DNA of 44,815 bases from an uncultured bacterium (GTDB taxonomy: Bacteria > Deinococcota > Deinococci > Deinococcales > Trueperaceae): the NCBI GenBank assembly GCA_964550765.1, contig CAZKAZ010000002.1:1-44815 (forward strand), read 5' to 3'. Shown here one piece after another: positions 1-44,815 of this stretch (its first letter is position 1; every line of letters starts with the position of its first letter). The translations under genes and the position numbers were made by a program. Below the pieces are notes generated by a model. That model was not told the DNA's origin and ran no database searches. It saw only the letters and a program-made list of their open reading frames with translations.

Positions 1-9
1 TCACTCGAG

Positions 10-36
10 CGAGGTATTGCACCTCGCTTTTTTCGT
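10..36 (+). terminator. Intrinsic terminator-like hairpin (GCGAGG-tattgca-CCTCGC followed by T6) for a plus-strand gene lying upstream of the window
   Basis: Perfect 6-bp GC-rich stem with a 7-nt loop followed by TTTTTT. It sits convergent with the alpha-E gene, which ends at 48. Confidence 0.4.
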
Positions 37-47
37 GTCTTGTTTTG

Positions 48-1058
48 TTATGCCCGTTGTTGCTGTTGTTGCACGGCGTCCGTATTAAACACAAAATACG
101 CTTGGCTGATGCTGTTGGATAAGTCAGCGATGCTCTCGAGCAAGTCTTCTGCTGAAGGTTGTTCTTCGACGAGCACTTGTTTGGCATCCGGCAGGTACTC
201 GAGCCTAGCGGCTAACCAACCCGCTTGCCGCACCGGGGTTTTGGCCACAGCGGCGTCATTACGCGTTTGAATATCACGCAAGATGTTGTGTACTACGTTG
301 AGCGAAAAGCGCACGCTGCGCGGAAAGTCTGCGTTGAGTAGCAAAAACTGTGCTACGTCGTCGGTACTGATGGCGCTGTGGTGTTGCTTGCGAAAGGCTT
401 CATAGGCACTGATCGAACGAAGCAACGCCATACTGCGGTGCACGTGTAATTCTTGGGCAATGAGGTGATTTTGTTGCTGTTGACGGTAGCGCAAGGTCAG
501 CACCCGCAAGACGTTATCGGCGCGTTCTAAGTACTGACCAGCACGCATAAAAAACCAGCCCAAGTCGCGGGGCATGGTGGCGTCGGCGATGCCAAAAAAC
601 AAGTGACTGGCGTCGCGCACGCCCGCGCAGTAGTCGTGGAGGTCTTCGCGCTCGAGCACGTCGCCACTATCTACGCAATAACGCAAGTACGTGCGGTTCA
701 TGGCTTGCCACATTTCTGAACTGATGCGGTCACGCAAGGTTCTGGCGTTTTCACGGGCAAAGGTGAGGCTCGAGGTGATGCTGCTTGAATTGTCCCGATG
801 AAACGCCAACCACTCCGAGACGGTATTGCGGTCTTTGCGGTCAAAGTGCTGCCGAAATGCCCCATCATCGTCGTCAATAATGGTTAGCAGTGGTGCCCAC
901 TGTTCGGCGATGATTTGTTCGAGGGCTTCAGGGGGATCTGCTTGACTCGGCGCTTCAATCACCGCGTGATAATTAACATCCAACAGGCGGGCGGTGTTCT
1001 CGGCGCGTTCGACGTAGCGCCCAATCCAATAGAGGTTTTCCGCAATGCGGCTCAGCAT
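48..1058 (-). CDS. alpha-E domain protein (DUF403), partner of circularly permuted ATP-grasp
   Basis: 336-aa ORF starting MLSRIAENLYWIGRYVERAENTARLLDVNYH, the typical alpha-E N-terminus. It lies immediately downstream of the CP ATP-grasp gene on the same strand, with TAA at 48-50. Confidence 0.85.
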   Translation of the reverse strand: MLSRIAENLYWIGRYVERAENTARLLDVNYHAVIEAPSQADPPEALEQIIAEQWAPLLTIIDDDDGAFRQHFDRKDRNTVSEWLAFHRDNSSSITSSLTFARENARTLRDRISSEMWQAMNRTYLRYCVDSGDVLEREDLHDYCAGVRDASHLFFGIADATMPRDLGWFFMRAGQYLERADNVLRVLTLRYRQQQQNHLIAQELHVHRSMALLRSISAYEAFRKQHHSAISTDDVAQFLLLNADFPRSVRFSLNVVHNILRDIQTRNDAAVAKTPVRQAGWLAARLEYLPDAKQVLVEEQPSAEDLLESIADLSNSISQAYFVFNTDAVQQQQQRA

Positions 1059-1257
1059 GGCAGCCTCCGAAAGATATATCGTGTTACGTGCCTTTGGGCA
1101 TGTGTTGTGTTGGTGGGATTGACAGTATCGACAGGGTTGACGGTGCGGTAATGCGGTAACGGGTCAGACGCGTCAGTAGTCAATGTAGTCTCAGTGATCA
1201 ATGTAGTCATAGTTAATGGAACGCAAAAGCATGTCGTGACATCGGGGCGTTGTCTCA

Positions 1258-2715
1258 TCATTCGCCGAGCACCCAGGTGTCTTTGGAACCGCCCCCTTGT
1301 GAGGAGTTGACCACCAGCGAACCGCGTTTTAAGGCCACTCGAGTGAGTCCCCCTGGCACTACCGTGATGTCTTCACCCACCAAGATGTAGGGGCGCAAGT
1401 CCACGTGACAGGCTTCAAAGCGGTCTTCGTCGGCGTAATACGTTGGGTGCTGTGACAGGGTGATGATGGGTTGGGCGATGTAATTGCTGGGGTCAGCGCG
1501 CACTGTGTCCAAAAAGGTGTGAATGGTTTCGTCGTCGGCTTCACTGCCCACGAGCATGCCATAACCCCCTGCGCCACCGACTTCTTTGATGACCATGTTG
1601 GCGGCGTTTTGAGTGATGTACTCGAGCTGCTCGGGGTCTGCTGCGCTGTAAGTGGGCACGTTATTAAGCAGGGGCTTTTCACTCAAGTAATACTCGATAA
1701 TTTTGGGAATATACGTATACATGGCTTTGTCATCGGCTACCCCTGTCCCCACTGCGTTGGCGAGTGCTACCCGACCTGCTTTGTAAACGTTCATCAACCC
1801 CGGCACCCCGAGCATAGAATCTTTACGGAAGGTATTAGGATCCAAAAAAGCATCATCAATGCGGCGATAAATAACATCCACGGCTTGCTTGCCTTGGGTG
1901 GTGCGCATCCACACCCGGCCTTCATCACAAAATAGGTCGCTACCGTGAGCGAGTTCAACGCCCATCTGCTGTGCTAAAAAAGCGTGTTCGTAGTAAGCGC
2001 TGTTAAATTGCCCGGGCGTGAGCACCACAATGGTGGGTTCGTTGTCAACAGGGGAGATGCTGCGCAACGTGGCTAACAGGGCACCAGGATAGTTTTGGAT
2101 GGTGCGCACCCGCGTTTCGGTCATGAGCTTAGGAAAACTGCGGGTCATCAGGGTGCGGTTGCCAAGCATATACGACACCCCGCTGGGGCTGCGCAAGTTG
2201 TCTTCCAATACCAAGTAATTTCCCTTAGCATCACGAATGAGGTCAGTGCCAACAATGTGGGTATAGGCATTGTGGGCAACGTCAACGCCGCGCATTTGGG
2301 GGCGGTAGTTGGGGTTTTTTTCGACCAACGCCCGCGGAATCACCCCGTCATTAAGGATGGCTTGCTCGTGATAAATATCATGTAAAAACAGGTTGATTGC
2401 CCGCACCCGTTGCTTCAGGCCAGCTTCAAGTTCCGTCCATTCGTTTGCGGGAATGATTCTGGGAAAAGGGTCAAACGGAAAGGTACGCTCGACGCCCTTG
2501 GCATCGCTATACACCGTAAACGTCACCCCTTGTTGCCGCATCATGAGATCAATCAAGGCACGCCGCTTGTGAAAGGCTTCTTTGCCATAAGCGTTTAGAC
2601 CCTCGATGACCCGTTGGTAATGTGGTCTAGGGCTACTATCAGTGTAAAACGCTTCATCAAAAGCGCGGCCAGGTTGATAGCTATCAAGCATGGCGTGGGT
2701 GTAGACATTGGGCAA
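1258..2715 (-). CDS. circularly permuted type-2 ATP-grasp protein (DUF404/DUF407 family amidoligase)
   Basis: 485-aa ORF of the length and composition typical of this family (MLDSYQPGRAFDEAFYTDSSPRPHYQRVIEGL...). It shows the canonical pairing with an alpha-E gene. The start could instead be the internal M at 2691. Confidence 0.8.
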   Translation of the reverse strand: MPNVYTHAMLDSYQPGRAFDEAFYTDSSPRPHYQRVIEGLNAYGKEAFHKRRALIDLMMRQQGVTFTVYSDAKGVERTFPFDPFPRIIPANEWTELEAGLKQRVRAINLFLHDIYHEQAILNDGVIPRALVEKNPNYRPQMRGVDVAHNAYTHIVGTDLIRDAKGNYLVLEDNLRSPSGVSYMLGNRTLMTRSFPKLMTETRVRTIQNYPGALLATLRSISPVDNEPTIVVLTPGQFNSAYYEHAFLAQQMGVELAHGSDLFCDEGRVWMRTTQGKQAVDVIYRRIDDAFLDPNTFRKDSMLGVPGLMNVYKAGRVALANAVGTGVADDKAMYTYIPKIIEYYLSEKPLLNNVPTYSAADPEQLEYITQNAANMVIKEVGGAGGYGMLVGSEADDETIHTFLDTVRADPSNYIAQPIITLSQHPTYYADEDRFEACHVDLRPYILVGEDITVVPGGLTRVALKRGSLVVNSSQGGGSKDTWVLGE

Positions 2716-2876
2716 AAGGTGAGAGCATCATGATGCAAAACCATAACACAAGGCGTTTTTTTATGCGGTAGCGCGTGACAGGCAGTGTTTCGTCACGTAA
2801 GGTTAGCAAGGCGGTTGGCAAGGTGTTTGTAAGGCATCCGCTGGTTTGTTTTGGGTTTGCTTGCTGCAATTGATAT

Positions 2877-3029
2877 GTGCCTAAGCAACGTCAAAAACGC
2901 GACCTACCGAGCAAAATTTGTGCCCAGTGTGGTCTGCCTTTCACCTGGCGCAAAAAATGGCAGCGCGACTGGGACAACGTCAAGTACTGTTCGGAACGTT
3001 GCCGTCGGGCTGCCAAGAAAGAACGTTAA
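2877..3029 (+). CDS. DUF2256 family small zinc-ribbon-like protein, 50 aa, GTG start; not in the supplied ORF track
   Basis: Frame translation gives [50 protein letters not shown], the hallmark DUF2256 motif (SKxCxxCGxPFxWRKKWxxxWxxVKYCSxRCR). Stop TAA is at 3027-3029. A TGA lies in-frame upstream at 2871. Confidence 0.6.
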
Positions 3030-3134
3030 AAAAGTGGCGTGAAGGTAGCTCAAGCAACCCAAACATCCTCTATAACAATGGAACAGTGAACTGTTTAGAG
3101 GCGTTTTTGCTGCCAAGCGCGTTAAGGTAAAACT

Positions 3135-3425
3135 GTGAATCTCGTCTGGGATGCCACCAATACCCGCAAAATTGTTGAACATGGCCTGACAACGCAAGAC
3201 GTTGAGGAGGCTCTGACCGACCGCAGTCGCTTCACTGCCCGTACCCGCCGCCGCGATGGACAGCAAGCTAGACAAGACAGCAAGCGTTTTCGTGTCATTG
3301 GTAAGACCCGCGCTGGTGACTTTGTGACAGTCATCCTGGGGATTACCCTCGAGCAACACCCCCGCGTCGTGACCGCCTATCCTTCTTCCAAGCGCGACAT
3401 ACGCACCTACCGCAAGCGCGTTTAG
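3135..3425 (+). CDS. BrnT-like type II toxin (DUF497 / RelE-fold ribonuclease family)
   Basis: 96 aa with a GTG start. The N-terminus NLVWDATNTRKIVEHGLTTQDVEEAL matches the BrnT pattern (F/L-x-WD-x-x-N-x-x-K-x-x-x-HG-x-x-x-x-E). Confidence 0.55.
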   Translation: MNLVWDATNTRKIVEHGLTTQDVEEALTDRSRFTARTRRRDGQQARQDSKRFRVIGKTRAGDFVTVILGITLEQHPRVVTAYPSSKRDIRTYRKRV

Positions 3426-3491
3426 TGCTAAACTACATGTGTGATAGACTCTAAGACGGTCACAACTGACCTAGATACCCTGCTTAGTGAT

Positions 3492-3620
3492 ATGACACCT
3501 GCCCAAGAAGCTGCTTTTTGGGAACATCATGATGTTGCACCAGAGATGTTTGAAACAGGTGAAGCCGTTGAAAAAGAACTTGATGCGCTACTTGGTATCA
3601 CCGATAAAGACAAGCATTGA
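3492..3620 (+). pseudogene. BrnA-like antitoxin remnant (N-terminal motif only, no RHH domain)
   Basis: 43-aa ORF MTPAQEAAFWEHHDVAPEMFETGEAVEKELDALLGITDKDKH*. The EAAFWEHHD motif resembles the conserved N-terminus of BrnA/DUF4415 antitoxins, but the C-terminal ribbon-helix-helix part is missing. It lies directly downstream of the BrnT-like gene. Confidence 0.3.
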
Positions 3621-3704
3621 GTTGTTCAATAAGACATCGAGCACACTTTTAGGTGTGTTTTTTATTACATACCCAGTATCTCCACTAAAACCCATAACAT
3701 CAAC

Positions 3705-3905
3705 ATGCACGATGCCAAAACCAGCTCGTCTAAGCTGGTCGAACAGGTGCTCGCTGGTAAGGAAGTTTTCTTCGTACAAAACGGCCAAGCCTTGGTACGC
3801 TTCGTGCCCGTTGAAGAAAGCCTGTACCCGCTGAGATTGCATGCGATGACCCTCAGTGACAGCGAAGCAGCAAAAGCCATGCAGCCTTCAGCACTCAGTG
3901 GGTAA
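3705..3905 (+). CDS. Phd/YefM-like antitoxin, apparently orphan (no toxin gene follows)
   Basis: 66 aa. DAKTSSSKLVEQVLAGKEVFFVQNGQALVRFVPVEE fits the Phd/YefM N-terminal consensus (EAKxxLSELxDxVxxGExVxITRxGKPVAxLVP). The next gene is convergent uspA. Confidence 0.45.
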   Translation: MHDAKTSSSKLVEQVLAGKEVFFVQNGQALVRFVPVEESLYPLRLHAMTLSDSEAAKAMQPSALSG

Positions 3906-3958
3906 AGTGAAGGTGGTGCATGAGCACTATCTGCCCACCTTCGTGATGGTCTTGGCAG

Positions 3959-4786
3959 TTAGCGATGTAAGAGCACGGGGCAAGGGGCAATTTTTAAGAG
4001 GGTCTCAGTCGTCGAGCCGAACAAAAATTCGCGCATGCGGTTCTCGCCAAACGCACCGATAGCGATGAGGTCGCCTTCTTCCAATTGGTCGATAATAGCC
4101 GCTGCAACTTCGCCAGAAGCCGCATGAGTGTCTACACTCACGTGATGGTCTTGAGCGTAGTGGCGCACGGTCTCGAGCTGTTTGTTGGCAACCGCTTCTT
4201 CGTCGTGAACGCTGATAGCTAGTACAGGAAGCTCCAAGCGTTCGGCAAATTCAATGGCGTAATGCATAGTGGCACTAGCGCGTTCAGAACCATCAAAACC
4301 AATGACGACCCGTTCGATGCTGGAAAAACTGGCGGGGGCTACCAGCACGGGTAAACGGCTTTTGCGCAAGACTTTTTCGGTGGTGCTACCAAGCTCTAAG
4401 CTAGCGTCAAGTTGGTTGGACTCGCCGCGCCTGCCCATAATCAGCAGGTCGTTGGCTTTGGCAAGCTCGAGGATGGTGCGCGCTGGAATACCCGTGCGCT
4501 TTTCGGTTTCGAAGGGTACGCCTGTGGGTTCGGCTTTTTCCTGAAAACGCGATAGTGCCAAGTCGCCTTGGGTTTCTAAAAGCGCCCGCATGTCATCTTT
4601 GAAAGTCAGCGTTGGCAAACTCACCGCGCCGTAATCTGCCCAGTGGGGCATGTTGATAAGATGATCATCGAGAACATACAAACAATGCACACTAGCGTCA
4701 AAACGTTTTGCGAGGTCTAAAGCGTAGTCACTAGCGACGCTCGAGACATCAGACACGTCAACAGCAAGCAAGATGGATTCAATCAT
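3959..4786 (-). CDS. tandem universal stress protein (two UspA domains)
   Basis: 275 aa from MIESILLAVDVSDVS. There are two Usp domains (…LIMGRRGE… and …VVIGFDGSERAS…LIAIGAFGE…). A perfect SD, TAAGGAGACTT, sits immediately upstream of ATG at 4786. The longer track ORF running to 4906 is a 5' over-extension. Confidence 0.8.
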   Translation of the reverse strand: MIESILLAVDVSDVSSVASDYALDLAKRFDASVHCLYVLDDHLINMPHWADYGAVSLPTLTFKDDMRALLETQGDLALSRFQEKAEPTGVPFETEKRTGIPARTILELAKANDLLIMGRRGESNQLDASLELGSTTEKVLRKSRLPVLVAPASFSSIERVVIGFDGSERASATMHYAIEFAERLELPVLAISVHDEEAVANKQLETVRHYAQDHHVSVDTHAASGEVAAAIIDQLEEGDLIAIGAFGENRMREFLFGSTTETLLKIAPCPVLLHR

Positions 4787-6571: not shown

Positions 6572-7354
6572 CTAAAGTTGGAAATCGCTCCCGAGATAGG
6601 TGAGGCGTACGTCTTCGTCTTTGGCAAACGCGTCGGGTGTGCCTTCAAAACGGACGTTACCGTCAAACATCAAATACACCCGGTCGGCAATGGCAAGGGT
6701 CTCGCGCACGCTGTGGTCGGTCAGTAACACGCCTAAGCCGCGCCGTTCGCGCAGTTCGGCAATGAGGAGTTGAATTTCGCGGATGCTTTTGGGGTCAACG
6801 CCCGTAAACGGCTCATCGAGCAAGATAAACGTGGGGTCGGTTGTTAAACTACGGGCTATCTCGAGCCGCCTGCGTTCCCCACCAGATAACGTATCCGCTC
6901 GGTTATTAGCCAGTCTGGTAAGTCCAAATTCCGCTAGCAAACTATCTGCTTTGGCATGTTGGGCGTCTTTGTCTAAGTCTTGAAACTCCAAAATCGCCAG
7001 CAGGTTATCGCGTACGCTCAGCTTGCGAAAGGCACTAGGTTCTTGTGCCAAGTACCCCAGACCGTGACGGGCGCGTTTGTACATCGGCCATTTGGTGATG
7101 TCTTGGCCGTTCATGGTGATGCTGCCTTGGTTGGGTTGCACAAAACCCACCACCATATAAAAACTGGTGGTTTTGCCCGCGCCATTAGGCCCCAACATGG
7201 CCACGATTTCACCGGGGTTAAGGGTAATGTTGACGCCCGAGACGACGGTGCGTTTGCCATAGCGTTTAATCAGCCCCCTAGCCTGCAAGCTGCTTGCGTT
7301 GGCAACGGGTGTGACCGTTTCCGGAGCGTTCATGGTTAACGACATAAGCCCCAT
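6572..7354 (-). CDS. lptB: LptB-like ABC transporter ATP-binding protein
   Basis: Walker [10 protein letters not shown], signature [15 protein letters not shown], Walker [12 protein letters not shown] and an H-loop TDHSVRE. It has the LptB-type C-terminal extension. The exact start is uncertain (7333, 7345 or 7354). The track start at 7426 adds a hydrophobic non-homologous extension. Confidence 0.75.
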
Positions 7355-7437
7355 GCTAGCACGCACGTGGACAATTATCGGCACTAGCATTACGACCCAA
7401 AACCCGCAAAAATAGCGACGCTTCATCGACAGTAAAA

Positions 7438-7510
7438 GCCAACCTCAAAAGCCAACCTCAAAAACTAACGTCTATTTCACTTGACAAAAAATATATACTG
7501 ATTGATATAC
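7438..7510. promoter_or_regulatory. Divergent promoter region with 13-bp tandem repeat (GCCAACCTCAAAA x2) and sigma70-like TTGACA-N17-GATATA
   Basis: The repeat copies are at 7438-7450 and 7451-7463. TTGACA is at 7481-7486 with a weak -10 hexamer 17 nt downstream, in an AT-rich context between divergent lptB-like and Yip1-like genes. Confidence 0.25.
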
Positions 7511-7536
7511 ACTAGAATAAATCATGTCATGAGGAG

Positions 7537-8514
7537 ATGGAAGCCGTGTCCGATCAACACACCCGCTATGCGGTAGAACTGACCGCCGTACCGGACGAAG
7601 CGACGCAAGTTACCGCTGCTCAAGCCCTCGCTGAAGCCCTTGATGCCGACCCTGACAAAGTACAAAAACTGCTTAATAGTGCGCCCAAGAAAATCTCGAG
7701 CGCCATGGCTAAAGAAGACGCCGAAGCCATGGCTACGTTGTGCCGCAAAGCAGGTTTGCAAGTATCGCTCATACCCATTGCCAGCAGACGCCCTGCTCGA
7801 GCACCATCATCTGAATCACCATCATCTCGAGCAGCTTCGCGCCCATCCCCTCAACCATCACGTCCACCTGCGACTCCGCCACACCCACCAGCTAGCAGCG
7901 AACGACGTACGGCACCCCCAACAGATACTACAGTGACAATCGCAGGTACAGTCCTCTCGAGTCCATACATCACCGTCCTCTTTGCGCCCCGCCAGACGAT
8001 GCGACAGGTGCTCGAGATATCATCTGCCAACAGTGACCTCAAAATTGTCGTGGTGTTGGTGTTGTTGGGGCTTATCCCTGTGGTTTTGCTCAGTCTGATA
8101 TTCCCGGTGTCAATTGTCGGTGTTGTGCTCTTTATTGCCGTTGTTTTTGCCGTCATTGGTGCGATTATTACTTTGTATATCAACGGGTTTATGTATCACT
8201 TCATCGGTGAAAAAGCCTTTGGCGGCAGCGCCAGTTACGCCGAAGCGCGGCTTGCTTACGCGTGGGGTCTCATTCCGGCGGCGTGGATTGCGGTTGTTTT
8301 AACGGTGGTATTGCTACCTGCTAGTGTCTTGTTTCCCCCTATGTTGGTGACGTTGCTCACGGGGTTGTTCGTCATCGTAGCGGCAGTGTGGAGTACTGTT
8401 GTGCAAGCGCAGACTTTGGGTGAAGCTCACAGGATTTCTGGCTGGCAAGCCTTCGGGACGATTCTCATTTCTGGTCTCATTTTGTCGTTGATTGGTTCAC
8501 TCTTTGGTTTGTAG
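7537..8514 (+). CDS. Yip1-family polytopic membrane protein with N-terminal ribosomal L7/L12-CTD-like domain and Pro/Ser-rich linker
   Basis: The N-terminal 80 aa (TAAQALAEALDADPDKVQKLLNSAPKKISSAMAKEDAEAMATLCRKAGLQVSL) resemble the L7/L12 C-terminal domain. A PS-rich linker follows, then five TM helices typical of Yip1/DUF1282. SD GAGGAG lies at 7531-7536, and GTG at 7546 is an alternative start. Confidence 0.65.
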   Translation: MEAVSDQHTRYAVELTAVPDEATQVTAAQALAEALDADPDKVQKLLNSAPKKISSAMAKEDAEAMATLCRKAGLQVSLIPIASRRPARAPSSESPSSRAASRPSPQPSRPPATPPHPPASSERRTAPPTDTTVTIAGTVLSSPYITVLFAPRQTMRQVLEISSANSDLKIVVVLVLLGLIPVVLLSLIFPVSIVGVVLFIAVVFAVIGAIITLYINGFMYHFIGEKAFGGSASYAEARLAYAWGLIPAAWIAVVLTVVLLPASVLFPPMLVTLLTGLFVIVAAVWSTVVQAQTLGEAHRISGWQAFGTILISGLILSLIGSLFGL

Positions 8515-8758
8515 GTTGGTGAGGACGCGTGCAGAACGTCCTTAGTGGAGGGTGTAGGTGCACTGCTCGGGGTCACCGAAGTAGCAGAGGTCGAAATCCG
8601 TTTGATTGGTGGCGAGTTAGTATATGACACATACAAGAAGTAGCACATCGAATACAAGCTGCTCACACATGCTACCTACAAAAGCAACGATGGATAGGTT
8701 ATGTTAGTCGAAAGTTTTGTCAATTTGCATGTCTTTTACAATGTTAGAGGGTTTTTCT

Positions 8759-9247
8759 ATGACACCCTCTAATGTAAGCGTTAGATATGACCAATTATTA
8801 GAGTCTGTACTTTTAGGGTTTATCTTTTATCTTTGTGTGATTATTACGTACTACTTTTTGAACCACGATGGCATATTGATTGGTATCCTACCTTCTTCCT
8901 TTGATCGTGCAGTTGGGCTTTTAAACTTCGTCTTCACAATTTTCTTTCTCGTTGCCTCAGCGTTTAACTGCATCTTTCTTAAATTCAAAGATAAACTCAA
9001 CGGGGTTGTTATAGTCTCTGTTGTCGATTCTTTTATTTTTCTATTGTTGATTATATTTTATTTTCAGTACTGGGGGCGTTGGGATTGGACTTACTCTTTA
9101 GGCATTTTTAATTCTTTTGTGCTTGCTATCCCCTTTTGCATATGCCGCGTCATCTTCATCAAGATTTTGCCTTTTGAACGGTCAAAGGAGTTCATAAAGC
9201 TTTATCACATTTCTTTTATCATTTTACTTTTTATTTTTTTGATTTGA
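8759..9247 (+). CDS. hypothetical polytopic membrane protein encoded in AT-rich islet
   Basis: 162 aa from MTPSNVSV with SD AGAGGG 7 nt upstream. There are 5-6 hydrophobic helices rich in F/I/L/Y, and a YFQYWGRWDW motif. Local GC is far below the window average. No recognisable family. Confidence 0.5.
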   Translation: MTPSNVSVRYDQLLESVLLGFIFYLCVIITYYFLNHDGILIGILPSSFDRAVGLLNFVFTIFFLVASAFNCIFLKFKDKLNGVVIVSVVDSFIFLLLIIFYFQYWGRWDWTYSLGIFNSFVLAIPFCICRVIFIKILPFERSKEFIKLYHISFIILLFIFLI

Positions 9248-9288
9248 AGTTTTTGCAGAGTAACCTGCACGCTTTTTTGCTTGGGGCG

Positions 9289-10782
9289 TCAGGCGTGTGT
9301 ATCGCTGGGTTGATTGAGCTTAGGAAACAGGGGGGCGAGTTGTGTGTATGCCTCAAGGAACAGTTGGTACTTGTTTTCGTATTGCGTGTTGGGATGTGGC
9401 TCGAGCCATTCCCCCTTCACATCAAGCCCATAATCCCCCTTGTCCCCTCGCATCACCTGCGCCGCCAACACCGCCCCCATCACCCCACTGTCACTCCCCG
9501 AAGCTTGCAACACTGCCACCCCTGTCACATCCGCCATAAGCTGACACCACGCGCTACTTTGGCTGCCGCCGCCTGTGAGAATCAGCGTGTCTGGCTTGGG
9601 CGATACTAGTGCGGTGAGTGCGTGTTGGTAGGCAAAGATGACGCCCTCGAGCACCGCCCGAAGCATATCCTCCCGCGTGTGAGACGCATTCAAGCCAATA
9701 AAACAGCCCCGCGCCGTCGGGTCACTAAACGGCGAACGTTCCCCGTTTAAGTAGGGCAGATAAATCAATGGTGTGATGGGACGCGTCAGCGCACGGTTGA
9801 TGAGCGTGTCGTAATCGTGCTCGCCAGCTTCGAGGATGCCAGTGAACCACTCGAGGTTTTGTCCTGCCGTCATCAGAGGGGCAATGCAAAGGTATCGGTC
9901 TGGCTGCGGATGGGCAAGGGTGAACACGCCCTGTGTTGGGTTGCCGCGTTGGGTGCTGCTGAACGCCCACCAACCGCTGGTGCCGATGTAACCGTAGGGC
10001 TTGCCGAGGACGCCGCTGCCTGTACCGAGGGTGGTTGCGCCTGCGTCGCCGGGAGCGAGGTAGACGGGTGTGCCTGTGGGTAAATCCAAAAATTCACCGA
10101 TACCTGCCGTGACGCTTCCGACATGCGTACCGCCGGGGACGAGTGTGGGGAGAAGGTCAGCGAGGTGAGGTAAGTCAAGTTGGGTGAACAGGTCTGGCTC
10201 GAGCCACCCCCTACTTTCAATATCCATCAGTCCCGTGGTGCTTGCCGTGGTGGTGTCACTGGCAACTTTGCCTGTGAGTTTGTAGACAATCACATCCGCC
10301 GCCCCAAGTAGGAGCGTGTCCGCTTGGGTGATGCTGTCGGGTTCGTGCTCGAGCAACCACTGCCACTTCGCCAATAAACTGGTGGCGGTTTGTTCGTTGC
10401 CTGTGTGCAACGTAAGGTCGATACCGCGTTCCTGACAGCTTGCTTGCAACTGCTCAGCTTGCCCGACTGCGCGGCTGTCGCTGTACAACATCACCGGACG
10501 AACGGGCGCACCATCCGCCAACAAAATCAGGTCTTGCATCTGGCCTGTGATGGCGATGGCGGTCACTTGTTGCATCCCCGTTTTTTCGCTAGAAGCCGCC
10601 AATACGTTCAGTTCTTGCATGGTCTCGCACGCTGCCAACCACCAGTCTTTGACGTTTTGTTCGACTCTACTGCCGTCAGTGTGGGTGGGATAGTCGCTGC
10701 TGCTGCGAAAGCGAATGGTCAAATCATCATCCAGCAACGCCGCTTTGACGCCGCTGGTACCGATATCAAGCGAAAGCCACAT
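9289..10782 (-). CDS. FGGY-family carbohydrate kinase (xylulokinase/gluconokinase-like)
   Basis: 497 aa with an N-terminal MWLSLDIGTSGVKAAL (FGGY N-domain DxGTxxxK) and a C-terminal GGGSQSSAWCQLMADVTG (FGGY C-domain). It is the last gene of the sugar ABC operon. Confidence 0.8.
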   Translation of the reverse strand: MWLSLDIGTSGVKAALLDDDLTIRFRSSSDYPTHTDGSRVEQNVKDWWLAACETMQELNVLAASSEKTGMQQVTAIAITGQMQDLILLADGAPVRPVMLYSDSRAVGQAEQLQASCQERGIDLTLHTGNEQTATSLLAKWQWLLEHEPDSITQADTLLLGAADVIVYKLTGKVASDTTTASTTGLMDIESRGWLEPDLFTQLDLPHLADLLPTLVPGGTHVGSVTAGIGEFLDLPTGTPVYLAPGDAGATTLGTGSGVLGKPYGYIGTSGWWAFSSTQRGNPTQGVFTLAHPQPDRYLCIAPLMTAGQNLEWFTGILEAGEHDYDTLINRALTRPITPLIYLPYLNGERSPFSDPTARGCFIGLNASHTREDMLRAVLEGVIFAYQHALTALVSPKPDTLILTGGGSQSSAWCQLMADVTGVAVLQASGSDSGVMGAVLAAQVMRGDKGDYGLDVKGEWLEPHPNTQYENKYQLFLEAYTQLAPLFPKLNQPSDTHA

Positions 10783-16117: not shown

Positions 16118-18841
16118 CTAGCTGCGGTGGGGATTGGCTTTGTCAGGGTTGATGCCGAGGTCATCAAGGGCTTTTTTCACGGTGTCCATGCTGAGGCGTT
16201 CGCTCTTCTTCTGGCGGCTGCGTTTGCCATCTAAAGCGAGTTCGTACAGGGTGGCTACCGTAATATAGCGGGCATCGACTTCAAAAAAGTCTCTGAGGTC
16301 TTCTCTGGTGCCACTTCTGCCAAAACCATCCGTACCTAGTGCCACGATGGGTTTGGGGACGTGCCGCGCTAAGGCATCTGGCAAAATTTTGAGGTAGTCC
16401 GAAGCCGCCACAAACACGCCGTCTTCATCTTTAAGCAGGTCGTAGATGTAAGGCGTGCGGGGGTCTTCTTCGGGGTGTAAGCGGTTGTGGCGTTCAGTTT
16501 CTAAGGCGTCTTGGTGCAAGGCTTTGTATGAGGTCACGCTCCACACATCTGCTGACACGCCATAGTCCTCGAGCATCGTTTGCGCTTTAAGGACTTCTGG
16601 CATAATCGCACCACTGCCAAACAAGTGCGCTTTGTGTTTGCCATCACTAGCAGCGGGGCGGAACTTGTACAAGCCCCGCAGCACGCCGTCTTTGAGGGCG
16701 TCGCGCTTTAAGTGCTCAGGTTCAGCGGGTTGGGCGTAGTTGTCGTTGCCCACCGTCAAGTAGTAGTAGATGCTCTCTTGTTCTTGATACATGCGGCGCA
16801 TGCCCTCGCGGATGATGATTGCTAACTCAAACGCGAACGAAGGGTCGTAACTGAGCAAGTTGGGAATGCCGTAGTCAAGCACATGGCTGTGGCCGTCTTG
16901 GTGTTGCAAGCCTTCACCCTCGAGCGTGGTACGCCCCGCGGTTGCCCCCAATAAGAAACCCCGTGTGCGCATGTCAGCGGCTGCCCAAGCAAGGTCACCA
17001 ATACGCTGAAAACCAAACATAGAATAAAAGATATAAAACGGAATGGTATTGACGCCATGGCTAGCATAAGCCGTGCCTGCGGCAATAAACGATGCCATTG
17101 AGCCAGCTTCGGTGATGCCTTCTTCGAGGATTTGCCCTTTTTCGTCTTCGCGGTAATAGAGCAAATTTTCTTTGTCGACGGGTTCGTAAAGTTGCCCCAC
17201 AGACGAGAAAATACCAATTTGTCTAAACAGGGCTTCCATCCCAAAGGTGCGGGCTTCGTCAGGAATAATGGGCACGACCAACTTACCCCAGGTTTTATCG
17301 CGCAAAATCTTACCCAAAATGCGCACAAACACCATCGTCGTCGATACTTCACGATCGTCAGTACCCTTGGCAAACTCGTCAAAAAGTTTTTCGTCAGGCG
17401 GCGCTAGGGGTTCGCTCTTAACACGGCGTTCGGGTTGGAAACCGCCTAGCGCTTGGCGGCGTTCGCTGAGATATTTGTACTCGGGGCTGTCTTGGTCGGG
17501 GCGATAGAAGGGATAGTCCGAGATTTCCTCGTCGCTGATGGGCACGCTAAAGCGGTCGCGGAACGCTTTCATGTCTTCTAAGTCCAGTTTTTTCTGCTGG
17601 TGTGCTACGTTCATGGCTTCGCCGGCTTTGCCCATGCCGTAACCTTTGACGGTGCGGGTGAGAATCACCGTTGGTGAGCCTTGGTGATGGAACGCCCGGT
17701 GGTAAGCGGCATACACCTTACGCACGTCGTGACCGCCGCGATTAAGCTTCGAGAGGTCCTCGTCACTCCAGCCTTCAATCAACGCTTTCAGTTCGGGGGA
17801 ATTGAAAAACTGTTCGCGCAATTCCTTGCCACCAAAGGCTGCATAGCGTTGTGATTCGCCGTCGGTAAGTTCTGCAAAACGATCAGCCAAAACGCCTTGG
17901 TCGTCTTTGTGCAGCAGTTTATCCCACTCGCTGCCCCAAGTGACTTTGATAACCTGCCAACCCGCACCGCGAAAAATACCCTCGAGCTCTTGAATAATCT
18001 GTCCGTTGCCATAAACAGGCCCGTCTAAGCGTTGCAAGTTGCAGTTGATGACCCAGATGAGGTTGTCGAGTTTTTCCCGAGCAGCAAACTTAATGGCGCC
18101 TAGCGTCTCGGGTTCGTCAGTTTCGCCATCGCCCAAAAACGCCCATACTTTGCCCGAACCTGCTTCTTTGAGGCCGCGTTTCTCGAGATAAACGTTAAAC
18201 CGTGCCTGATAAATCGACATAATGGGTGCAAGCCCCATCGATACAGTAGGAAACTGCCAAAAATCTGGCATGAGCCACGGGTGGGGGTAACTTGACAAGC
18301 CGCCACCATAGACTTCGCGGCGGAAGTTGCGCAGGTGTTCTTTGTGGATGCGGTGTTCTAGATAGGCTCGAGCGTAAATCCCTGGCGAAGCGTGCCCCTG
18401 ATAATAGACCATATCGGCGTCTACGCCCGCGTCATGACCGCGAAAAAAATGGTTAAGCCCCACGTCATATAAGGTTGCTGCTGAGGCAAACGTGGAAATA
18501 TGCCCACCGACGCCGCTGTTTTTGTTGGCGCGCACCACCATAGCCATGGCGTTCCAGCGCGTGTAGCGGCGAATGCTGCGTTCAATGTCTTCGTCACCCG
18601 GATAGGCGGGTTCTTGATCTGCTGGAATGGTGTTGAGGTACGGCGTCGTGGCGGTAAAGGGAATATCGACCCCTTGGCTGAGCGCGTAAATATCGAGCTT
18701 ATCAAGGACTTCGACGACCCGTTCAGGGCCAGCACTCAGCAGCACATACTCGAGTGACTCGAGCCACTCTTGGGTCTCAATATCGTTTAAGCGTTTGCGT
18801 TTTTCTGGCTCGAGGTTGGTTCGCTCGGCAAGATCGGCCAT
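16118..18841 (-). CDS. aceE: pyruvate dehydrogenase E1 component, homodimeric type
   Basis: 907 aa, collinear with AceE (MADLAERTNLEPEKRKRLNDIETQEWLESLEYVL…). SD AAAGGAG lies upstream of the ATG. Confidence 0.9.
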   Translation of the reverse strand: MADLAERTNLEPEKRKRLNDIETQEWLESLEYVLLSAGPERVVEVLDKLDIYALSQGVDIPFTATTPYLNTIPADQEPAYPGDEDIERSIRRYTRWNAMAMVVRANKNSGVGGHISTFASAATLYDVGLNHFFRGHDAGVDADMVYYQGHASPGIYARAYLEHRIHKEHLRNFRREVYGGGLSSYPHPWLMPDFWQFPTVSMGLAPIMSIYQARFNVYLEKRGLKEAGSGKVWAFLGDGETDEPETLGAIKFAAREKLDNLIWVINCNLQRLDGPVYGNGQIIQELEGIFRGAGWQVIKVTWGSEWDKLLHKDDQGVLADRFAELTDGESQRYAAFGGKELREQFFNSPELKALIEGWSDEDLSKLNRGGHDVRKVYAAYHRAFHHQGSPTVILTRTVKGYGMGKAGEAMNVAHQQKKLDLEDMKAFRDRFSVPISDEEISDYPFYRPDQDSPEYKYLSERRQALGGFQPERRVKSEPLAPPDEKLFDEFAKGTDDREVSTTMVFVRILGKILRDKTWGKLVVPIIPDEARTFGMEALFRQIGIFSSVGQLYEPVDKENLLYYREDEKGQILEEGITEAGSMASFIAAGTAYASHGVNTIPFYIFYSMFGFQRIGDLAWAAADMRTRGFLLGATAGRTTLEGEGLQHQDGHSHVLDYGIPNLLSYDPSFAFELAIIIREGMRRMYQEQESIYYYLTVGNDNYAQPAEPEHLKRDALKDGVLRGLYKFRPAASDGKHKAHLFGSGAIMPEVLKAQTMLEDYGVSADVWSVTSYKALHQDALETERHNRLHPEEDPRTPYIYDLLKDEDGVFVAASDYLKILPDALARHVPKPIVALGTDGFGRSGTREDLRDFFEVDARYITVATLYELALDGKRSRQKKSERLSMDTVKKALDDLGINPDKANPHRS

Positions 18842-23111: not shown

Positions 23112-23125
23112 TGTTTTCAGCGTTT

Positions 23126-23146
23126 GAGGCAGTGTCATACTGCCTC
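23126..23146 (+). other. 8-bp stem hairpin (GAGGCAGT-gtcat-ACTGCCTC) in A-B intergenic spacer, no U-tract
   Basis: A perfect inverted repeat in the 61-bp spacer. It is a candidate RNA processing or stability element rather than a terminator. Confidence 0.3.
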
Positions 23147-23172
23147 ACCTTTAGAAACGAGAGGTTAGGTGT

Positions 23173-27135: not shown

Positions 27136-27146
27136 ACGTTTTCTCT

Positions 27147-27173
27147 GGGCTAGGTGTTGTGCCTAGCCCTTTT
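27147..27173 (+). terminator. Intrinsic terminator/attenuator hairpin between genes B and C (GGGCTAGG-tgttgtg-CCTAGCCC + TTTT)
   Basis: An 8-bp GC-rich perfect stem followed directly by T4, 12 nt after the gene B stop. It is probably a partial terminator that sets B:C stoichiometry. Confidence 0.5.
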
Positions 27174-27194
27174 GACACCTTAGGAGGTAACAAG

Positions 27195-27227
27195 GTGAAA
27201 CACGTAACACAAAGAGGTAGGCAATGA
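27195..27227 (+). other. 10-codon upstream ORF (VKHVTQRGRQ*) with strong SD, stop overlapping gene C start (ATGA)
   Basis: AGGAGG is 8 nt before GTG at 27195. Its TGA stop at 27225-27227 overlaps ATG at 27224. It may act as a translational-coupling leader. Confidence 0.25.
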
Positions 27228-40557: not shown

Positions 40558-40596
40558 ACGCAGCTAGCAGTCAAGGTCTAGGGTAAGCATTTCTGA

Positions 40597-41359: not shown

Positions 41360-41425
41360 ATTTTGTGACCATATCGACTGGGGTGTTTGCTTGCCGTAAT
41401 GCAGCCTTGAATTGTCCCCTCATGG

Positions 41426-41452
41426 CTTGACAATTGTCCTCACCGTTTGTCA
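41426..41452. promoter_or_regulatory. Inverted repeat TTGACAA-N13-TTGTCAA overlapping direct repeat AATTGTCC(C)CTCA x2 in divergent SDR/TPR promoter region
   Basis: Read from the sequence at 41408-41452. The geometry is operator-like and overlaps a -35-like TTGACA. Confidence 0.35.
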
Positions 41453-41685
41453 ATGAACCCGATTTCGCACGCGGCTGCACACCCAACGTGTCTGCTTGTT
41501 GCAAGATGCTTGGCAGTGTTGCTGTGATGATGTTGCAATGACATCAGAGAGCTGCTGAGATGCTGCCGAGACGTTGCTGAGCGTTACAAAGAGACGTCAT
41601 GGGGGCGGTAGGGTGGTCGATAACGTGCGGTGAACGTTGGCCAGTTGAATCCTGACTGGCTTACTTGGGTTAGGCTAGAACAAGC

Positions 41686-42678
41686 ATGACGTATCACGCT
41701 AGTGACATGACTGCCCTCGAGGCATTACACCCCAGTTGGCAAGAAGACGTGCACGCACACGCTCGAGCGCAGCTACATACCTATGTGCAAACGTGGCTCG
41801 AGCAGCCTCAGCTGGAACGGGCCGAGGTGCTGCTGAGTAAAACATGGCAACTAGGCGCGCTCGACGCTTGTGTGCAGGTGTGTGATGTGGTGTTGTTACA
41901 CACGCCCAAAGCGAGCGTGACGATTCGCAAAGGGGCGTGTTTGATACGTCTGGGGCGCTTAGCAGACGCGATGACCTTACTGCACACTGCACCAGAACTG
42001 CACACTGTACCAGATAATGAATTGCAGGGTTATGCGCTGTTGCAACTCGGCAATGCCCTGCGTTATCAAGGCGCTAATGAAGCACAACAACAGGCTCGAG
42101 CTACCCTCACTGAGGCGCTCGAGCAAGCCGAAACGCAGCGCGATGGCGGTTTGGTGATTGCTGTGCGCACCGCACTCGGTGAGTTGGCGCTCGAGCAAGG
42201 TCACTTAGAAACAGCCATTGAAATGCTCGGCAAAGCCCTAGGACTGACCGAATTTTTTAGCGACAAACGTTTGACGATAGCTCCCTTAGGCGCACTAGCA
42301 CACGCGCATGTCTTGTGGAAAAACCCCAGTAAAGCGTTTGACCTAGCTGAACGCGCTGTTAATAGAGCACAAGATTCCGTTGACCGAGTGGGTACAGCGC
42401 GGGCAAAATTCGCCAGTGCACTGGCTGCGGGGTTGCGTGAGCCGCGTCAACAACAAACGGCCTACACCTTGGCTGAGGCGTTGCAAGCAGCACAACACGC
42501 CCCCCATGTGCCGCTAGCGTTGCGCATTGCCGTAGCCGAGGTCAGCCAGCGTGCCCATGATTCCCGTCAGGGAGTATTGTTAGACGAGTTGCAGGGGTGG
42601 CTCGAGCAGGCGACGACCCTCAACATGCAGCCCGAAATGGCACAACTCACCCGTCTTATGACGCAACGTGATGCCTAA
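41686..42678 (+). CDS. hypothetical alpha-helical repeat (TPR-like) protein
   Basis: 330 aa, Ala/Leu/Gln-rich, with helical-repeat character (…ALLQLGNALRYQG…, …ELALEQGHLETAIEMLGKAL…). No specific family was recognised. Confidence 0.5.
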   Translation: MTYHASDMTALEALHPSWQEDVHAHARAQLHTYVQTWLEQPQLERAEVLLSKTWQLGALDACVQVCDVVLLHTPKASVTIRKGACLIRLGRLADAMTLLHTAPELHTVPDNELQGYALLQLGNALRYQGANEAQQQARATLTEALEQAETQRDGGLVIAVRTALGELALEQGHLETAIEMLGKALGLTEFFSDKRLTIAPLGALAHAHVLWKNPSKAFDLAERAVNRAQDSVDRVGTARAKFASALAAGLREPRQQQTAYTLAEALQAAQHAPHVPLALRIAVAEVSQRAHDSRQGVLLDELQGWLEQATTLNMQPEMAQLTRLMTQRDA

Positions 42679-42829
42679 AAACGGTTAAGCGCGAGTCGGT
42701 GGCTGCTGCGTCTATTCGCATCGTGTAAAATTGTCATTATGCGTTGTTGTTGCCATCACATCTTGAGGTTCGTTGGGCGTTGGGATATGAATAAAAGTGT
42801 GTTGAGCGTCGGGTTGAGGTTAACAGTAC

Positions 42830-43996: not shown

Positions 43997-44022
43997 CGCA
44001 GGTATTGACCCGGATTGGCACA

Positions 44023-44050
44023 AAAAAGAGGCTCGAGTGCTCGAGCCTCC
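44023..44050 (-). terminator. Intrinsic terminator for the ferredoxin gene: stem GAGGCTCGAG / CTCGAGCCTC (two CTCGAG copies) with A6 on plus strand = U6 on minus
   Basis: A perfect 10-nt inverted repeat with a 2-nt spacer. It lies between convergent dprA and the ferredoxin gene. Confidence 0.55.
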
Positions 44051-44095
44051 CAACAATGTGTTGGTTATTGCCAACGTGCTTACAAGCCAACGTGC

Positions 44096-44332
44096 TTACA
44101 AGCCAGAGAGTTCGTAGTTTTTCTTGATGAAAGAATGCCACTCTTCGGGCACGTCTTCTTCAGGAAAAATGGCGCTTACCGGGCACGCGGGCACGCAAGC
44201 ACCGCAGTCAATACACTCATCAGGATGAATGTACAGTTGGTCGTCGGCTTCATAGATGCACTCAACGGGACAGACGTCCACGCAGGATTTGTCTTGGGTG
44301 CCGATGCAAGGTTCGGCGATGATGTGTGGCAT
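44096..44332 (-). CDS. 7Fe-type ferredoxin (FdxA-like)
   Basis: 78 aa from MPHIIAEPCIGTQDKSCVDVCPVECIY…CIDCGACVPACPV. SD GGGAGG lies upstream. The track ORF running to 44437 is a 5' over-extension. Confidence 0.85.
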   Translation of the reverse strand: MPHIIAEPCIGTQDKSCVDVCPVECIYEADDQLYIHPDECIDCGACVPACPVSAIFPEEDVPEEWHSFIKKNYELSGL

Positions 44333-44669
44333 GAGTACCTCCCAAACTAGGCTCAAACGAGCGTACGTGAAGTTGATGCGCGCAGCAAGTGACGTTTGCC
44401 CCTTGACGCTACCGTGATGCAAGCTCACAAAACGCATGGTGTTGTGGTTAATGTGCAGTGATTCGCGTGCTGTGGTTAGCGTGGCGCACCTTCTCTATCT
44501 AGCATGGCTGTGCTCAACACGATAAGCAAGGTGTTAGGCTACGATAGTTGAAACACGCACTGACGAGACGAAAACGTCATACAACCAGCGTATGGATGTT
44601 ACGCATTGTGGTGGCTGGTTGTTTTGGGGGCATGTAAACTTAAATAAAGCCAATTTTTGGAGGCATCGC

Positions 44670-44815
44670 GTGCCATACGTCAACATCAAAATTACCAAAG
44701 AAGGGGTAACCAAAGCGCAAAAAGAGGCGTTAATCGCTGGAGCGACCCAGCTTTTGGTCGATGTCCTCGGTAAAAATCCACAAACGACGTTTGTGATTAT
44801 TGAAGAAGTCGATAC
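44670..44815 (+). CDS. 4-oxalocrotonate tautomerase-family protein (partial, continues beyond window)
   Basis: SD GGAGG is 7 nt upstream of GTG. The protein begins (M)PYVNIKITKEGVTKAQKEALIAGATQLLVDVLGKNPQTTFVIIEEVD, with the Pro1 and beta-alpha-beta pattern of the tautomerase superfamily. Confidence 0.6.
   Translation, partial: MPYVNIKITKEGVTKAQKEALIAGATQLLVDVLGKNPQTTFVIIEEVD

Follow-up and report, generated by a model that had tools for sequence, protein, structure and literature searches.

The window examined here, positions 1 to 44,815 of contig CAZKAZ010000002.1 (GC 53.2%), carries 31 genes called from open reading frames (ORFs), Pfam matches and gene calls on identical contigs of the Joint Genome Institute (JGI). 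Throughout these genes and the DNA between them lies the palindromic hexamer CTCGAG, the subject of this report. We counted 96 exact copies, i.e. one per 467 bp or 2.1 per kb, in close agreement with an initial annotation of the sequence that had put the number at about 95 (one per ~470 bp) and had proposed a signature of the DNA itself, resembling the highly iterated palindromes (HIPs) of cyanobacteria. All start positions are given in Table 1 together with the window features discussed below. Our results indicate that the signature is very probably a genuine DNA-level trait of the HIP type.

Abundance and form of CTCGAG

CTCGAG is the most frequent hexamer in the window and its sole extreme outlier (z = 51 against an order-2 Markov model); the hexamers ranked next overlap it, and the first unrelated hexamer has a z of ~8. 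Dinucleotide-preserving shuffles (n = 100) gave 6.40 expected copies (standard deviation 2.62, maximum 14), and per-strand Markov models of orders 0, 1, 2 and 3 gave 12.3, 6.5, 6.2 and 15.9. The comparison with a Markov expectation that had been proposed as a check thus yields 6 to 15 times every low-order value. The order-4 expectation of 60 is uninformative, most occurrences of the pentamers CTCGA and TCGAG being already parts of the motif. Expressed as observed over expected (O/E), the excess is 15 for Markov orders 1-2 and 7.7 for shuffled synonymous codons. Spacing between sites is exponential with no departure detected (coefficient of variation 0.93, Kolmogorov-Smirnov p = 0.68), the variance of counts per 2 kb is about equal to their mean, and gaps of at least 1,383 bp number 5 against 4.8 expected.

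The sites are found in every reading frame and between genes. Ninety lie in coding sequence, where the motif spells Leu-Glu as CTC-GAG in frame 0 (61 observed vs 8.4 expected), xCT-CGA-Gxx in frame 1 (17 vs 0.88) and xxC-TCG-AGx in frame 2 (12 vs 2.6), and the 4.3 kb of intergenic DNA holds the other 6 against 0.4-0.9 expected. When synonymous codons were shuffled within genes, a procedure that keeps the protein sequence and a codon usage already inflated by the motif, 11.7 ± 3.4 coding copies were expected against the 90 observed. Positions at which the motif can be placed synonymously are occupied at ~30% overall (frame 0, 53%; frame 1, 23%; frame 2, 11%), and 17 of the 41 rare CGA Arg codons lie within it. 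The HIP-like, DNA-level character proposed in the initial annotation is borne out by the enrichment in frames 1 and 2 and in intergenic DNA.

Alternatively, a preference of translation for CTC and GAG, or for the two as a pair, might generate such an excess with no cause at the DNA level. Frame 0 does hold 68% of the coding sites, and the genome has a general context bias, in that Leu codon choice depends strongly on the neighbouring base in ways that have no connection with the motif (before a codon starting with A, CTC accounts for 40% of Leu codons, but before C for 5%, and it is used in 0 of the 42 Leu-Gln pairs). Outside Leu-Glu pairs, Leu is written CTC in 22% of cases and Glu is written GAG in 17%. 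From context-free usage 4.4 of the 115 Leu-Glu dipeptides should be encoded CTC-GAG, but 61 are (binomial p ~1e-54), and a null that takes the neighbouring base into account (CTC 20% before G, GAG 18% after C) predicts 4.3. A global liking for CTC and GAG that lacks a codon-pair effect, which the initial annotation had named as a competing account, therefore does not explain the data. Moreover, the excess extends to frames 1 and 2 and to intergenic DNA, where it is 5 to 19-fold, and the flanking G/C bias is symmetric on both sides of the motif, as for a palindrome of DNA. Because of the frame and intergenic enrichment and the context-aware null, we regard codon preference as refuted and its being the cause as improbable in the extreme.

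The pressure is such that even the Leu-Glu content of the proteins is raised. The 115 Leu-Glu dipeptides compare with 70 expected from shuffling residues within proteins (z = 6.1), the reverse dipeptide Glu-Leu is near its expectation (68 vs 70), and Leu-Gln, Leu-Asp and Val-Glu, each one base off the motif, are slightly below theirs. At residue 640 of the pyruvate dehydrogenase (PDH) E1 protein, a Leu-Glu encoded by CTCGAG stands where 81 of 81 homologues have Leu-Asn, Leu-Ala or Leu-Ser, and a conserved Ala-Arg-Ala in the same protein is spelled GCT-CGA-GCC with the rare CGA codon.

With respect to the exact form of the motif, GCTCGAGC is the most frequent 8-mer in the window, with 27 copies (0.6 per kb) against 0.64-0.85 expected (O/E 32-42). 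The flank of G at −1 or C at +1 is present in 54% of half-sites, and at synonymous third positions it rises to 67-83% (G at −1 in 41 of 61 frame-0 sites, C at +1 in 10 of 12 frame-2 sites). The flank preference had initially been described as weak; it is real but stronger than that, and the element is better written GCTCGAGC. Enrichment persists when both flanks are missing, with 19 copies of the bare hexamer against roughly 3-6 expected. Two broader targets were rejected. The AvaI-type variants CCCGAG, CTCGGG and CCCGGG occur in 4-5 copies each and are not enriched, which speaks against the degenerate CYCGRG, and the TaqI-type tetramer TCGA is neutral outside CTCGAG (117 vs 115-127 expected), other NTCGAN palindromes being rare. 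The target is an XhoI-type hexamer with a secondary preference for GC...GC, i.e. GC-TCGA-GC.

Membership of the copies in a dispersed repeat, or in a miniature mobile element with CTCGAG inside it, can almost certainly be dismissed. Repeat finding did return a few weak families centred on TGGCTCGAGCCAC (D9, I1, I4). However, no sequence conservation beyond the octamer was found around the window copies, identity past it being at chance level (67-73% over 30 nt), and 94% of the sites are intragenic and in frame with conserved protein sequence. Among relatives, differences in motif columns are substitutions in 26 of the 27 columns of alignment block A, and alignment gaps adjoin only 3 of 38 motif columns overall. 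The CTCGAG copies thus lack the longer conserved unit, the mostly intergenic position and the insertion that characterize repetitive extragenic palindromes and miniature inverted-repeat transposable elements.

As for other palindromes, GCTAGC, which is GCTCGAGC minus its central CG, is the second most frequent palindromic hexamer (29 copies in the window and 15 in the relative L083; O/E ~1.9), and CTAG, which many bacteria avoid, has an O/E of 1.1 here. Several others are scarce in the window, namely GATC (41 copies, O/E 0.25), GGCC (0.43), CCGG (0.56), TGATCA (0.25), CGGCCG (0.07) and CGCGCG (0.05). This avoidance resembles the usual footprint of restriction systems, beside an XhoI-type site that is hoarded.

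Genes and gaps along the window

The highest site density occurs in the TPR-repeat gene, for which the initial annotation's statement that CTCGAG encodes five of seven Leu-Glu dipeptides proved exact. It had also assigned two copies to an intergenic terminator. These two form the perfect inverted repeat GAGGCTCGAG/CTCGAGCCTC, whose predicted RNA fold has a free energy of −22.1 kcal/mol (z −4.5), and with a U-run on the minus-strand transcript the structure is probably a terminator hairpin.

Three places had been singled out as poor in the motif, and were taken as a sign of recently acquired DNA. The motif is indeed absent from the longer motif-free stretch and from the shorter one that begins within the small-ORF islet, and it is sparse in gene A, but as a flag for foreign DNA these gaps do not serve by themselves, since they fit a Poisson distribution of sites (uncorrected P for scarcity 0.05, 0.17 and 0.034, respectively). 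In gene A the scarcity has another cause, as its protein is entirely free of Leu-Glu dipeptides, so that sites in frame 0 are impossible; in the giant genes next to it CTCGAG encodes 5 of 7 and 13 of 23 Leu-Glu dipeptides. Gene A is the first of three consecutive giant surface-type proteins (1,059, 1,320 and 2,634 aa; window 19932-35128), which carry Big_9, cadherin-like, Calx-beta, HYDIN/VesB-like Ig and DUF1573 repeats, and the internal DNA repeats of their genes are the source of most direct-repeat families in the window.

GC and gene content, together with the differing genes of relatives, suggest that the motif-free stretch and the small-ORF region are variable islets. The former is a variable junction at which the relative L093 has a different insertion of small ORFs (6950-9100), one of them with DUF4277; for the AT-rich ORF of the window a Pfam search gave no family match. 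The small-ORF region lies between the Usp and circularly-permuted ATP-grasp genes and contains a DUF2256 gene, a BrnT-like toxin gene (below the Pfam cut-off) and a weak Phd-like antitoxin gene. Relatives carry other genes at this place, a DUF4357 protein in L085 (3425-4372) and Imm17 proteins plus a glyoxalase in L083 (8821-9810) and L089 (1813-3134). A long minus-strand ORF in the window at 2904-3359 is probably spurious.

Table 1. Window features discussed in the text and start positions of all CTCGAG copies
Feature	Position	Strand	Remarks
Putative variable islet of small ORFs	2877..3905	+	One CTCGAG (3348), then motif-free 3354-4171
Motif-free stretch	8017..9399		Includes AT-rich ORF 8717-9247 (176 aa, GC 34%)
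Pyruvate dehydrogenase E1 gene	16118..18841	-	8 sites; CTCGAG in 7/11 Leu-Glu
Gene A, Ig/cadherin-like, 1,059 aa	19932..23111	+	2 sites only, in frames 1 and 2
TPR-repeat gene	41686..42678	+	Pfam TPR_12; top site density, 7 sites (5 frame 0, 2 frame 1)
Inverted repeat, perfect 10 bp	44028..44049		Two CTCGAG copies (44032, 44040); between convergent dprA and ferredoxin genes
CTCGAG starts, part 1	4, 135, 198, 651, 769, 1338, 1621, 3348, 4172, 4466, 4740, 4977, 5009, 5338, 5654, 5780, 6860, 7695, 7796, 7826, 7956, 8011, 9400, 9646		
CTCGAG starts, part 2	9850, 10198, 10348, 10819, 11196, 12237, 12605, 12954, 13339, 13823, 14831, 15709, 15747, 16568, 16919, 17981, 18182, 18367, 18749, 18758, 18809, 19357, 19695, 21226		
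CTCGAG starts, part 3	22355, 23503, 23575, 23611, 23823, 25213, 25451, 25525, 27234, 27843, 27914, 29015, 29135, 30074, 31193, 31325, 31883, 32903, 33248, 33530, 33566, 33593, 34550, 35287		
CTCGAG starts, part 4	35369, 35697, 36908, 37488, 37903, 38522, 38807, 39092, 39459, 40709, 40763, 41716, 41762, 41797, 42095, 42118, 42190, 42601, 42980, 43478, 43706, 43934, 44032, 44040		

Relatives and the persistence of sites

Judged from source labels, synteny and protein identity, the host is an uncultured member of the Deinococcota related to Truepera, a bacterium that resists radiation. Truepera radiovictrix (L087) has the same ABC-ATPase/DUF3084/Usp order as the window, with a PDH E1 gene nearby; the ABC ATPases are 77% identical and the DUF3084 proteins 41% by local alignment or 34% in the search table. 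Homologues of the DUF3084 protein bear the NCBI label "MAG: Deinococcota bacterium" (MAG, metagenome-assembled genome), and a metagenome scan with this protein returned one 3.4-kb locus.

The excess of CTCGAG is a lineage trait, common to four relatives and one distant relative, each sampled over 4-22 kb that are mostly syntenic with one part of the window. There are 42 copies in 21.6 kb of L093 (82-91% nucleotide identity; 665-kb contig_5294 of ERZ1757541), 15 in 4.5 kb of L085/L088 (~83% identity), and 36 in 16.9 kb and 19 in 8.6 kb, respectively, of L083/L084 and L089, the NCBI MAGs GCA_964564405.1 and GCA_039034155.1 (~70% identity, GC 48-49%). In these four relatives (GC 48-53%) the hexamer O/E is 14-17 and the Leu-Glu codon-pair ratio 10-17, and the much more distant L092 (GC 37%) has 13 copies against ~1.2 expected, an 11-fold excess, with a codon-pair ratio that likewise falls within 10-17. 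For comparison, 76 unrelated control loci (distant PDH E1 homologues from other phyla, at most 65% identical, among the matches listed) gave codon-pair ratios with a median of 1.03 and a maximum of 2.95, and none of them shows the excess. Truepera (GC 67%) and L090 (GC 64%), with ratios of 1.8-2.65, fall inside this control range, and no CTCGAG excess was found in the L086 sample. The surplus of Leu-Glu dipeptides in proteins is 1.4-fold in three close relatives and absent in Truepera, L090, L092 and L086. The trait may be ancestral and concealed by codon preference in the relatives of high GC, or it may have arisen independently in L092 and the window clade.

Some of these GC-rich genomes share the absolute density of the window, which raises the possibility that its sites are relics of a GC-rich, Truepera-like ancestor that preferred CTC and GAG, the GC content having fallen later without decay of the old sites. 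Truepera and L090 have 2.1-2.2 CTCGAG per kb, and 59-69% of their Leu-Glu dipeptides are encoded by it, near the 47-58% of the window clade. Against such a history, CTC and GAG in the window are down to 22% and 17% except beside each other, intergenic sites are enriched, and L092 retains its 11-fold excess at a GC of 37%. Frame-1 sites use CGA, a codon that is also rare in the GC-rich relatives (1 of 12 CGA codons in Truepera). Members of the clade are saturated at synonymous sites yet each has mostly non-shared motif sites, so that sites must be made continually. These turnover and frame data largely refute the relic reading, and we consider it very unlikely.

As an observation in its own right, GC-rich genomes can encode 59-69% of Leu-Glu as CTCGAG and hold ~2 sites per kb and yet show just a 2 to 3-fold excess; the control loci L024, L067 and L004 (a gammaproteobacterium, a member of the Steroidobacteraceae and an acidobacterium) also lie in the upper tail. 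The same pressure could be masked in genomes where CTC and GAG are preferred anyway.

The fate of individual sites was followed most closely between the window and L093, whose third codon positions are 71% identical. Whichever of the two is taken as reference, 23 of its 26 sites are conserved in the other, whereas the figure for all hexamers is 46.5% (p = 1e-5). A codon-conservation control modelled on the HIP1 test of Xu et al. (PMC5861425) showed that the codons concerned are conserved more often in the motif than outside it (CTC 15/17 vs 47/83; GAG 16/17 vs 15/32; CGA 4/4 vs 2/8; TCG 4/5 vs 12/23). At the 29 aligned positions with the motif in either genome, 23 are identical, one differs by one base (9.9 expected) and five differ by two or more (5.7 expected). 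The usual difference between relatives is a double change, such as CTG-GAA for CTC-GAG, and the intermediate CTC-GAA occurs only 6 times in the window against ~21 expected. At 70-83% identity site conservation is weaker and not significant; the window and L085, for example, share 6 sites (of 9 in the window and 13 in L085). Density is maintained, and individual sites are long-lived but not permanent, while new ones keep arising.

DNA of recent arrival lacks the motif in L093, where a transposase segment and a lineage-specific insertion, classed as mobile by gene content before the motif was examined, together contain no site over 3.45 kb, where ~7.9 would be expected; the motif is likewise missing from an OLD-type ATPase gene that was spotted later. 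The proposal that absence of CTCGAG marks acquired DNA therefore holds in principle, as these segments show, but not for the gaps of the window. Several other L093 genes (a sugar ABC ATPase, its permease and the circularly-permuted ATP-grasp gene) are fragmented although intact in the window, and these splits look like frameshift errors of a long-read assembly, not real pseudogenes. ERZ1757541 and ERZ25072999, from which several relatives come, both appear to be assemblies of long reads.

Within the population, which occurs in the JGI samples 3300040801, 3300040790, 3300040802 and 3300040804, the window matches JGI metagenome contigs at 99.9% identity, with 7 differences from L002 in 9.9 kb and 3 from L001, all shared with L002. 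Two of these few differences, which are too few to test, touch the motif or its variants, i.e. a motif copy at window position 35370 (GCTCGAG vs GCCCGAG) and position 37033 (CTTAAG vs CTCAAG, two and one base off the motif).

Maintenance of the motif and known systems

Taken together, the pressure on the DNA is specific to the lineage, favours the intact palindrome, disfavours or swiftly resolves states one base off, and acts on every position of the motif. It overrides codon preference and sometimes protein sequence, and it fails to reach DNA that has recently arrived. In the explanation we prefer, a directional pressure on the DNA would hold CTCGAG, and by preference GCTCGAGC, at ~2 copies per kb. 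Sites arise by point substitution wherever the protein allows, as CTC-GAG, as CGA in x-Arg-x or as TCG-AGC in x-Ser-Ser, and once formed they persist far longer than neighbouring synonymous positions. The reader would be all-or-none in its specificity, with a CTCGAG-specific DNA methyltransferase as the most likely candidate; a reader of the restriction-modification type is suggested because sharp recognition of a 6-bp palindrome is the classic specificity of type II systems. Repair or recombination might then act in favour of the intact allele, which carries the mark, and against its one-off counterpart, and such biased correction or conversion would both create and preserve sites. In cyanobacteria each alternate HIP, GGCGCC included, is accompanied by a matching methyltransferase, and a ratchet of methylation-directed repair has been proposed (Elhai 2015, PMC4390886). 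As a whole, the account of a HIP-type signature held by DNA-acting pressure through a methyltransferase-type reader is the best that we can offer, and we see it as equally liable to prove right or wrong. The specific pairing of a CTCGAG methyltransferase with biased correction or conversion seems plausible, although we lean slightly towards doubting it.

Several points weigh against this explanation. No methyltransferase, Vsr or other candidate reader was found in the window or in the 4-22 kb of the fetched relatives, and these samples are small, with genes called from ORFs. The enrichment of the bare hexamer is not predicted by Elhai's G-mC ratchet. The depletion of one-off variants does not follow a simple pattern of deamination or very-short-patch repair, in that O/E in the window is 0.28 for TTCGAG/CTCGAA, 0.79 for CTTGAG/CTCAAG (the least depleted) and 0.21-0.28 for transversions, although protein-coding constraint and a codon pool that is itself inflated confound these values. 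Only 4 sites are common to the window and L083 (4 of 15 in the window, 4 of 17 in L083), barely above the 13-17% background. Finally, the conservation and the all-or-none pattern could also be produced by plain selection acting on single sites or by recombination biased by uptake.

The latter process leads to a different reading, in which CTCGAG is a signal for DNA uptake or self-recognition that spreads by molecular drive with no benefit to the cell, fragments that bear the (methylated) motif being preferred by the competence machinery or at a stage after uptake, so that alleles with the motif would enter the chromosome by recombination more often. Cultivated Deinococcota are naturally competent, and the density of ~2 per kb, the random spacing, the use of all frames, the footprint on the proteome, the absence from mobile DNA and the terminator-like hairpin formed by an inverted pair would all be expected of such a signal. 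Protection of all six positions against every change also fits replacement of alleles, and dprA lies in the window, but this gene is near-universal and so proves nothing. A drive of this kind, acting through natural transformation, has recently been proposed for HIP1 (bioRxiv 10.64898/2026.06.24.733823). On the other hand, known uptake sequences are 9-12 bp long, non-palindromic and accompanied by common one-off variants, whereas those of CTCGAG are strongly depleted, and a palindrome of 6-8 bp discriminates little against foreign DNA. We also know of no sequence preference in the DNA uptake of Thermus and Deinococcus. An uptake signal is unlikely in our view.

Alternatively, each site might be directly useful and kept by ordinary selection, for instance as a binding site of a nucleoid-organising protein or in the nicking or strand discrimination of mismatch repair, in which case a site at intervals of a few hundred bases would benefit the cell. 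Sites and the codons within them are conserved beyond background, the same conservation test from which Xu et al. (PMC5861425) argued for selection on HIP1, and ~2 sites per kb occur in four relatives of differing GC. Over longer distances, however, positions are lost, and their spacing is Poisson and not regular; it follows from this turnover and spacing that density is held, not location. No binding protein is known, and direct selection appears decidedly improbable.

A further version of the methyltransferase explanation can be offered only tentatively, as we doubt that it will hold in all its parts. GC-TCGA-GC would be an independent, non-cyanobacterial HIP, read all-or-none by an orphan CTCGAG methyltransferase. 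Biased repair or transformation, coupled to methylation, would keep it throughout a clade related to the Trueperales regardless of GC content (37-53%), with enough force to alter protein sequences, as in the Leu-Glu excess; the same drive would have gone unnoticed in some GC-rich lineages, as the motif-saturated viral contigs described next suggest.

With regard to other lineages, a scan of IMG/VR for two copies of GCTCGAGC within 30 nt returned 120 loci, among which some viral contigs, mostly with a GC of 68-72%, are saturated with the motif (CTCGAG in 28 of 29, 27 of 34, 23 of 24, 19 of 20 and 17 of 18 Leu-Glu dipeptides). Motif-rich loci are L141 and L109 (IMGVR_UViG_3300020577_003093), L147, L163, L119, L111 and L102, with up to 26 copies of GCTCGAGC per 12 kb; L102 has a GC of 58% and CTCGAG in 24 of 30 Leu-Glu. 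Tetranucleotide signatures showed no tie between these contigs and the window lineage, and a motif scan of the 120 loci together with Pfam found no methyltransferase on the motif-rich contigs. The only enzymes that Pfam confirmed among the 120 loci, a Dam-like and an N6_N4 type, lie on ordinary or low-motif contigs. It seems that the same drive exists in other hosts and their viruses, and it may have been overlooked in GC-rich genomes.

HIP1 has been known for three decades, and the debate over its maintenance, by selection, by biased repair or by DNA uptake, continues. The window probably provides a second, independent case; such a system, with a TCGA core and in an unrelated phylum, would open this question to comparative tests, for instance of the proteins that co-occur with the motif, of a constant role for methylation and of the need for the GC...GC frame. 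The signal stands clear of codon usage because the GC of the lineage is moderate to low, which makes site gain and loss and the effect on proteins easily measured. In practice, the motif provides a sharp lineage signature for binning metagenomes and spotting mobile DNA, and the presence of an XhoI-type site every 470 bp has to be reckoned with when DNA of these organisms is cloned or analysed through its methylation.

Several of the features that define HIPs are found here. CTCGAG is an over-represented, GC-rich palindrome, present in all frames and in non-coding DNA, carried by substitution and not part of a longer repeat, and between the window and L093 it is conserved above background and above the same codons outside it. 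HIPs occur at 0.5-2.5 per kb, their octamer being over-represented 15 to 300-fold (PMC4390886, PMC5861425); the 0.6 (octamer) to 2.1 (hexamer) copies per kb and ~30-fold octamer excess of the window lie inside both ranges. Quasi-periodic spacing on a scale of 10-90 kb also belongs to the HIP class; over the short distances within the 45-kb window the spacing is exponential. With HIP1 it shares the outer frame GC....GC (GC-GATC-GC in HIP1, GC-TCGA-GC here), the presence in all coding frames and non-coding DNA, the spread by substitution and the conservation beyond background. It is not HIP1 proper, as GCGATCGC has 0 copies in the window, the central tetramer is TCGA and not GATC, and the lineage belongs to the Deinococcota and not to the cyanobacteria. 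In addition, CGATCG is not enriched outside HIP1 (Elhai 2015, PMC4390886), whereas the hexamer core is enriched alone here; HIP1* variants are reported as enriched and conserved, whereas one-off variants of CTCGAG are depleted; and the cognate methyltransferases DmtA and DmtC have no identified counterpart in the window or the fetched relatives. A closer parallel in size is the GGCGCC of Calothrix PCC 7103 (Elhai 2015), likewise a GC-rich 6-bp palindrome, ~15 to 20-fold over-represented (hexamer O/E here 15), which replaces HIP1 in a narrow lineage, as here. It differs in sequence and phylum and in the matching methyltransferase (GRCGYC) found in the Calothrix genome, and the CTCGAG trait is not sporadic but common to at least four related genomes and one distant relative.

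The DNA uptake sequences (DUS) of Neisseria and the uptake signal sequences (USS) of Pasteurellaceae resemble CTCGAG in being genome-wide (~one per kb), random in position, found in the least costly frames, with an effect on proteins, scarce in recently acquired DNA and active as terminators when paired in inverted orientation. They differ, however, in being 9-12 bp long, non-palindromic and tolerant of one-off changes, and they are bound by a competence pilin or some unknown uptake protein; CTCGAG has neither the length and asymmetry nor the abundant near-matches of these sequences. At the CCWGG sites of Escherichia coli, Dcm and Vsr likewise make a methyltransferase target commoner and its neighbours rarer through biased correction of mismatches, the kind of mechanism that the initial annotation had put forward. 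This very-short-patch effect is modest and specific to T:G products of deamination. The excess here is 8 to 15-fold with depletion of all one-off classes, least so for CTTGAG/CTCAAG, and no vsr or dcm-like gene was seen in the window or the fetched relatives.

XhoI and PaeR7I are restriction-modification enzymes specific for CTCGAG, which shows that all-or-none readers with exactly this 6-bp specificity exist. CTCGAG is also 5-methylcytosine-methylated in Halorubrum sp. BOL3-1, whose genome has 560 copies (PMC8112702). Restriction systems normally cause their sites to be avoided, whereas the site is hyper-abundant here. Full-text searches of the literature turned up no description of CTCGAG as over-represented in bacteria. 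CTCGAG in this Truepera-related lineage is most readily compared with the HIPs; it is very probably a signature of their type, new both in its motif and in its phylum, and we propose that its mechanism involves a methyltransferase.

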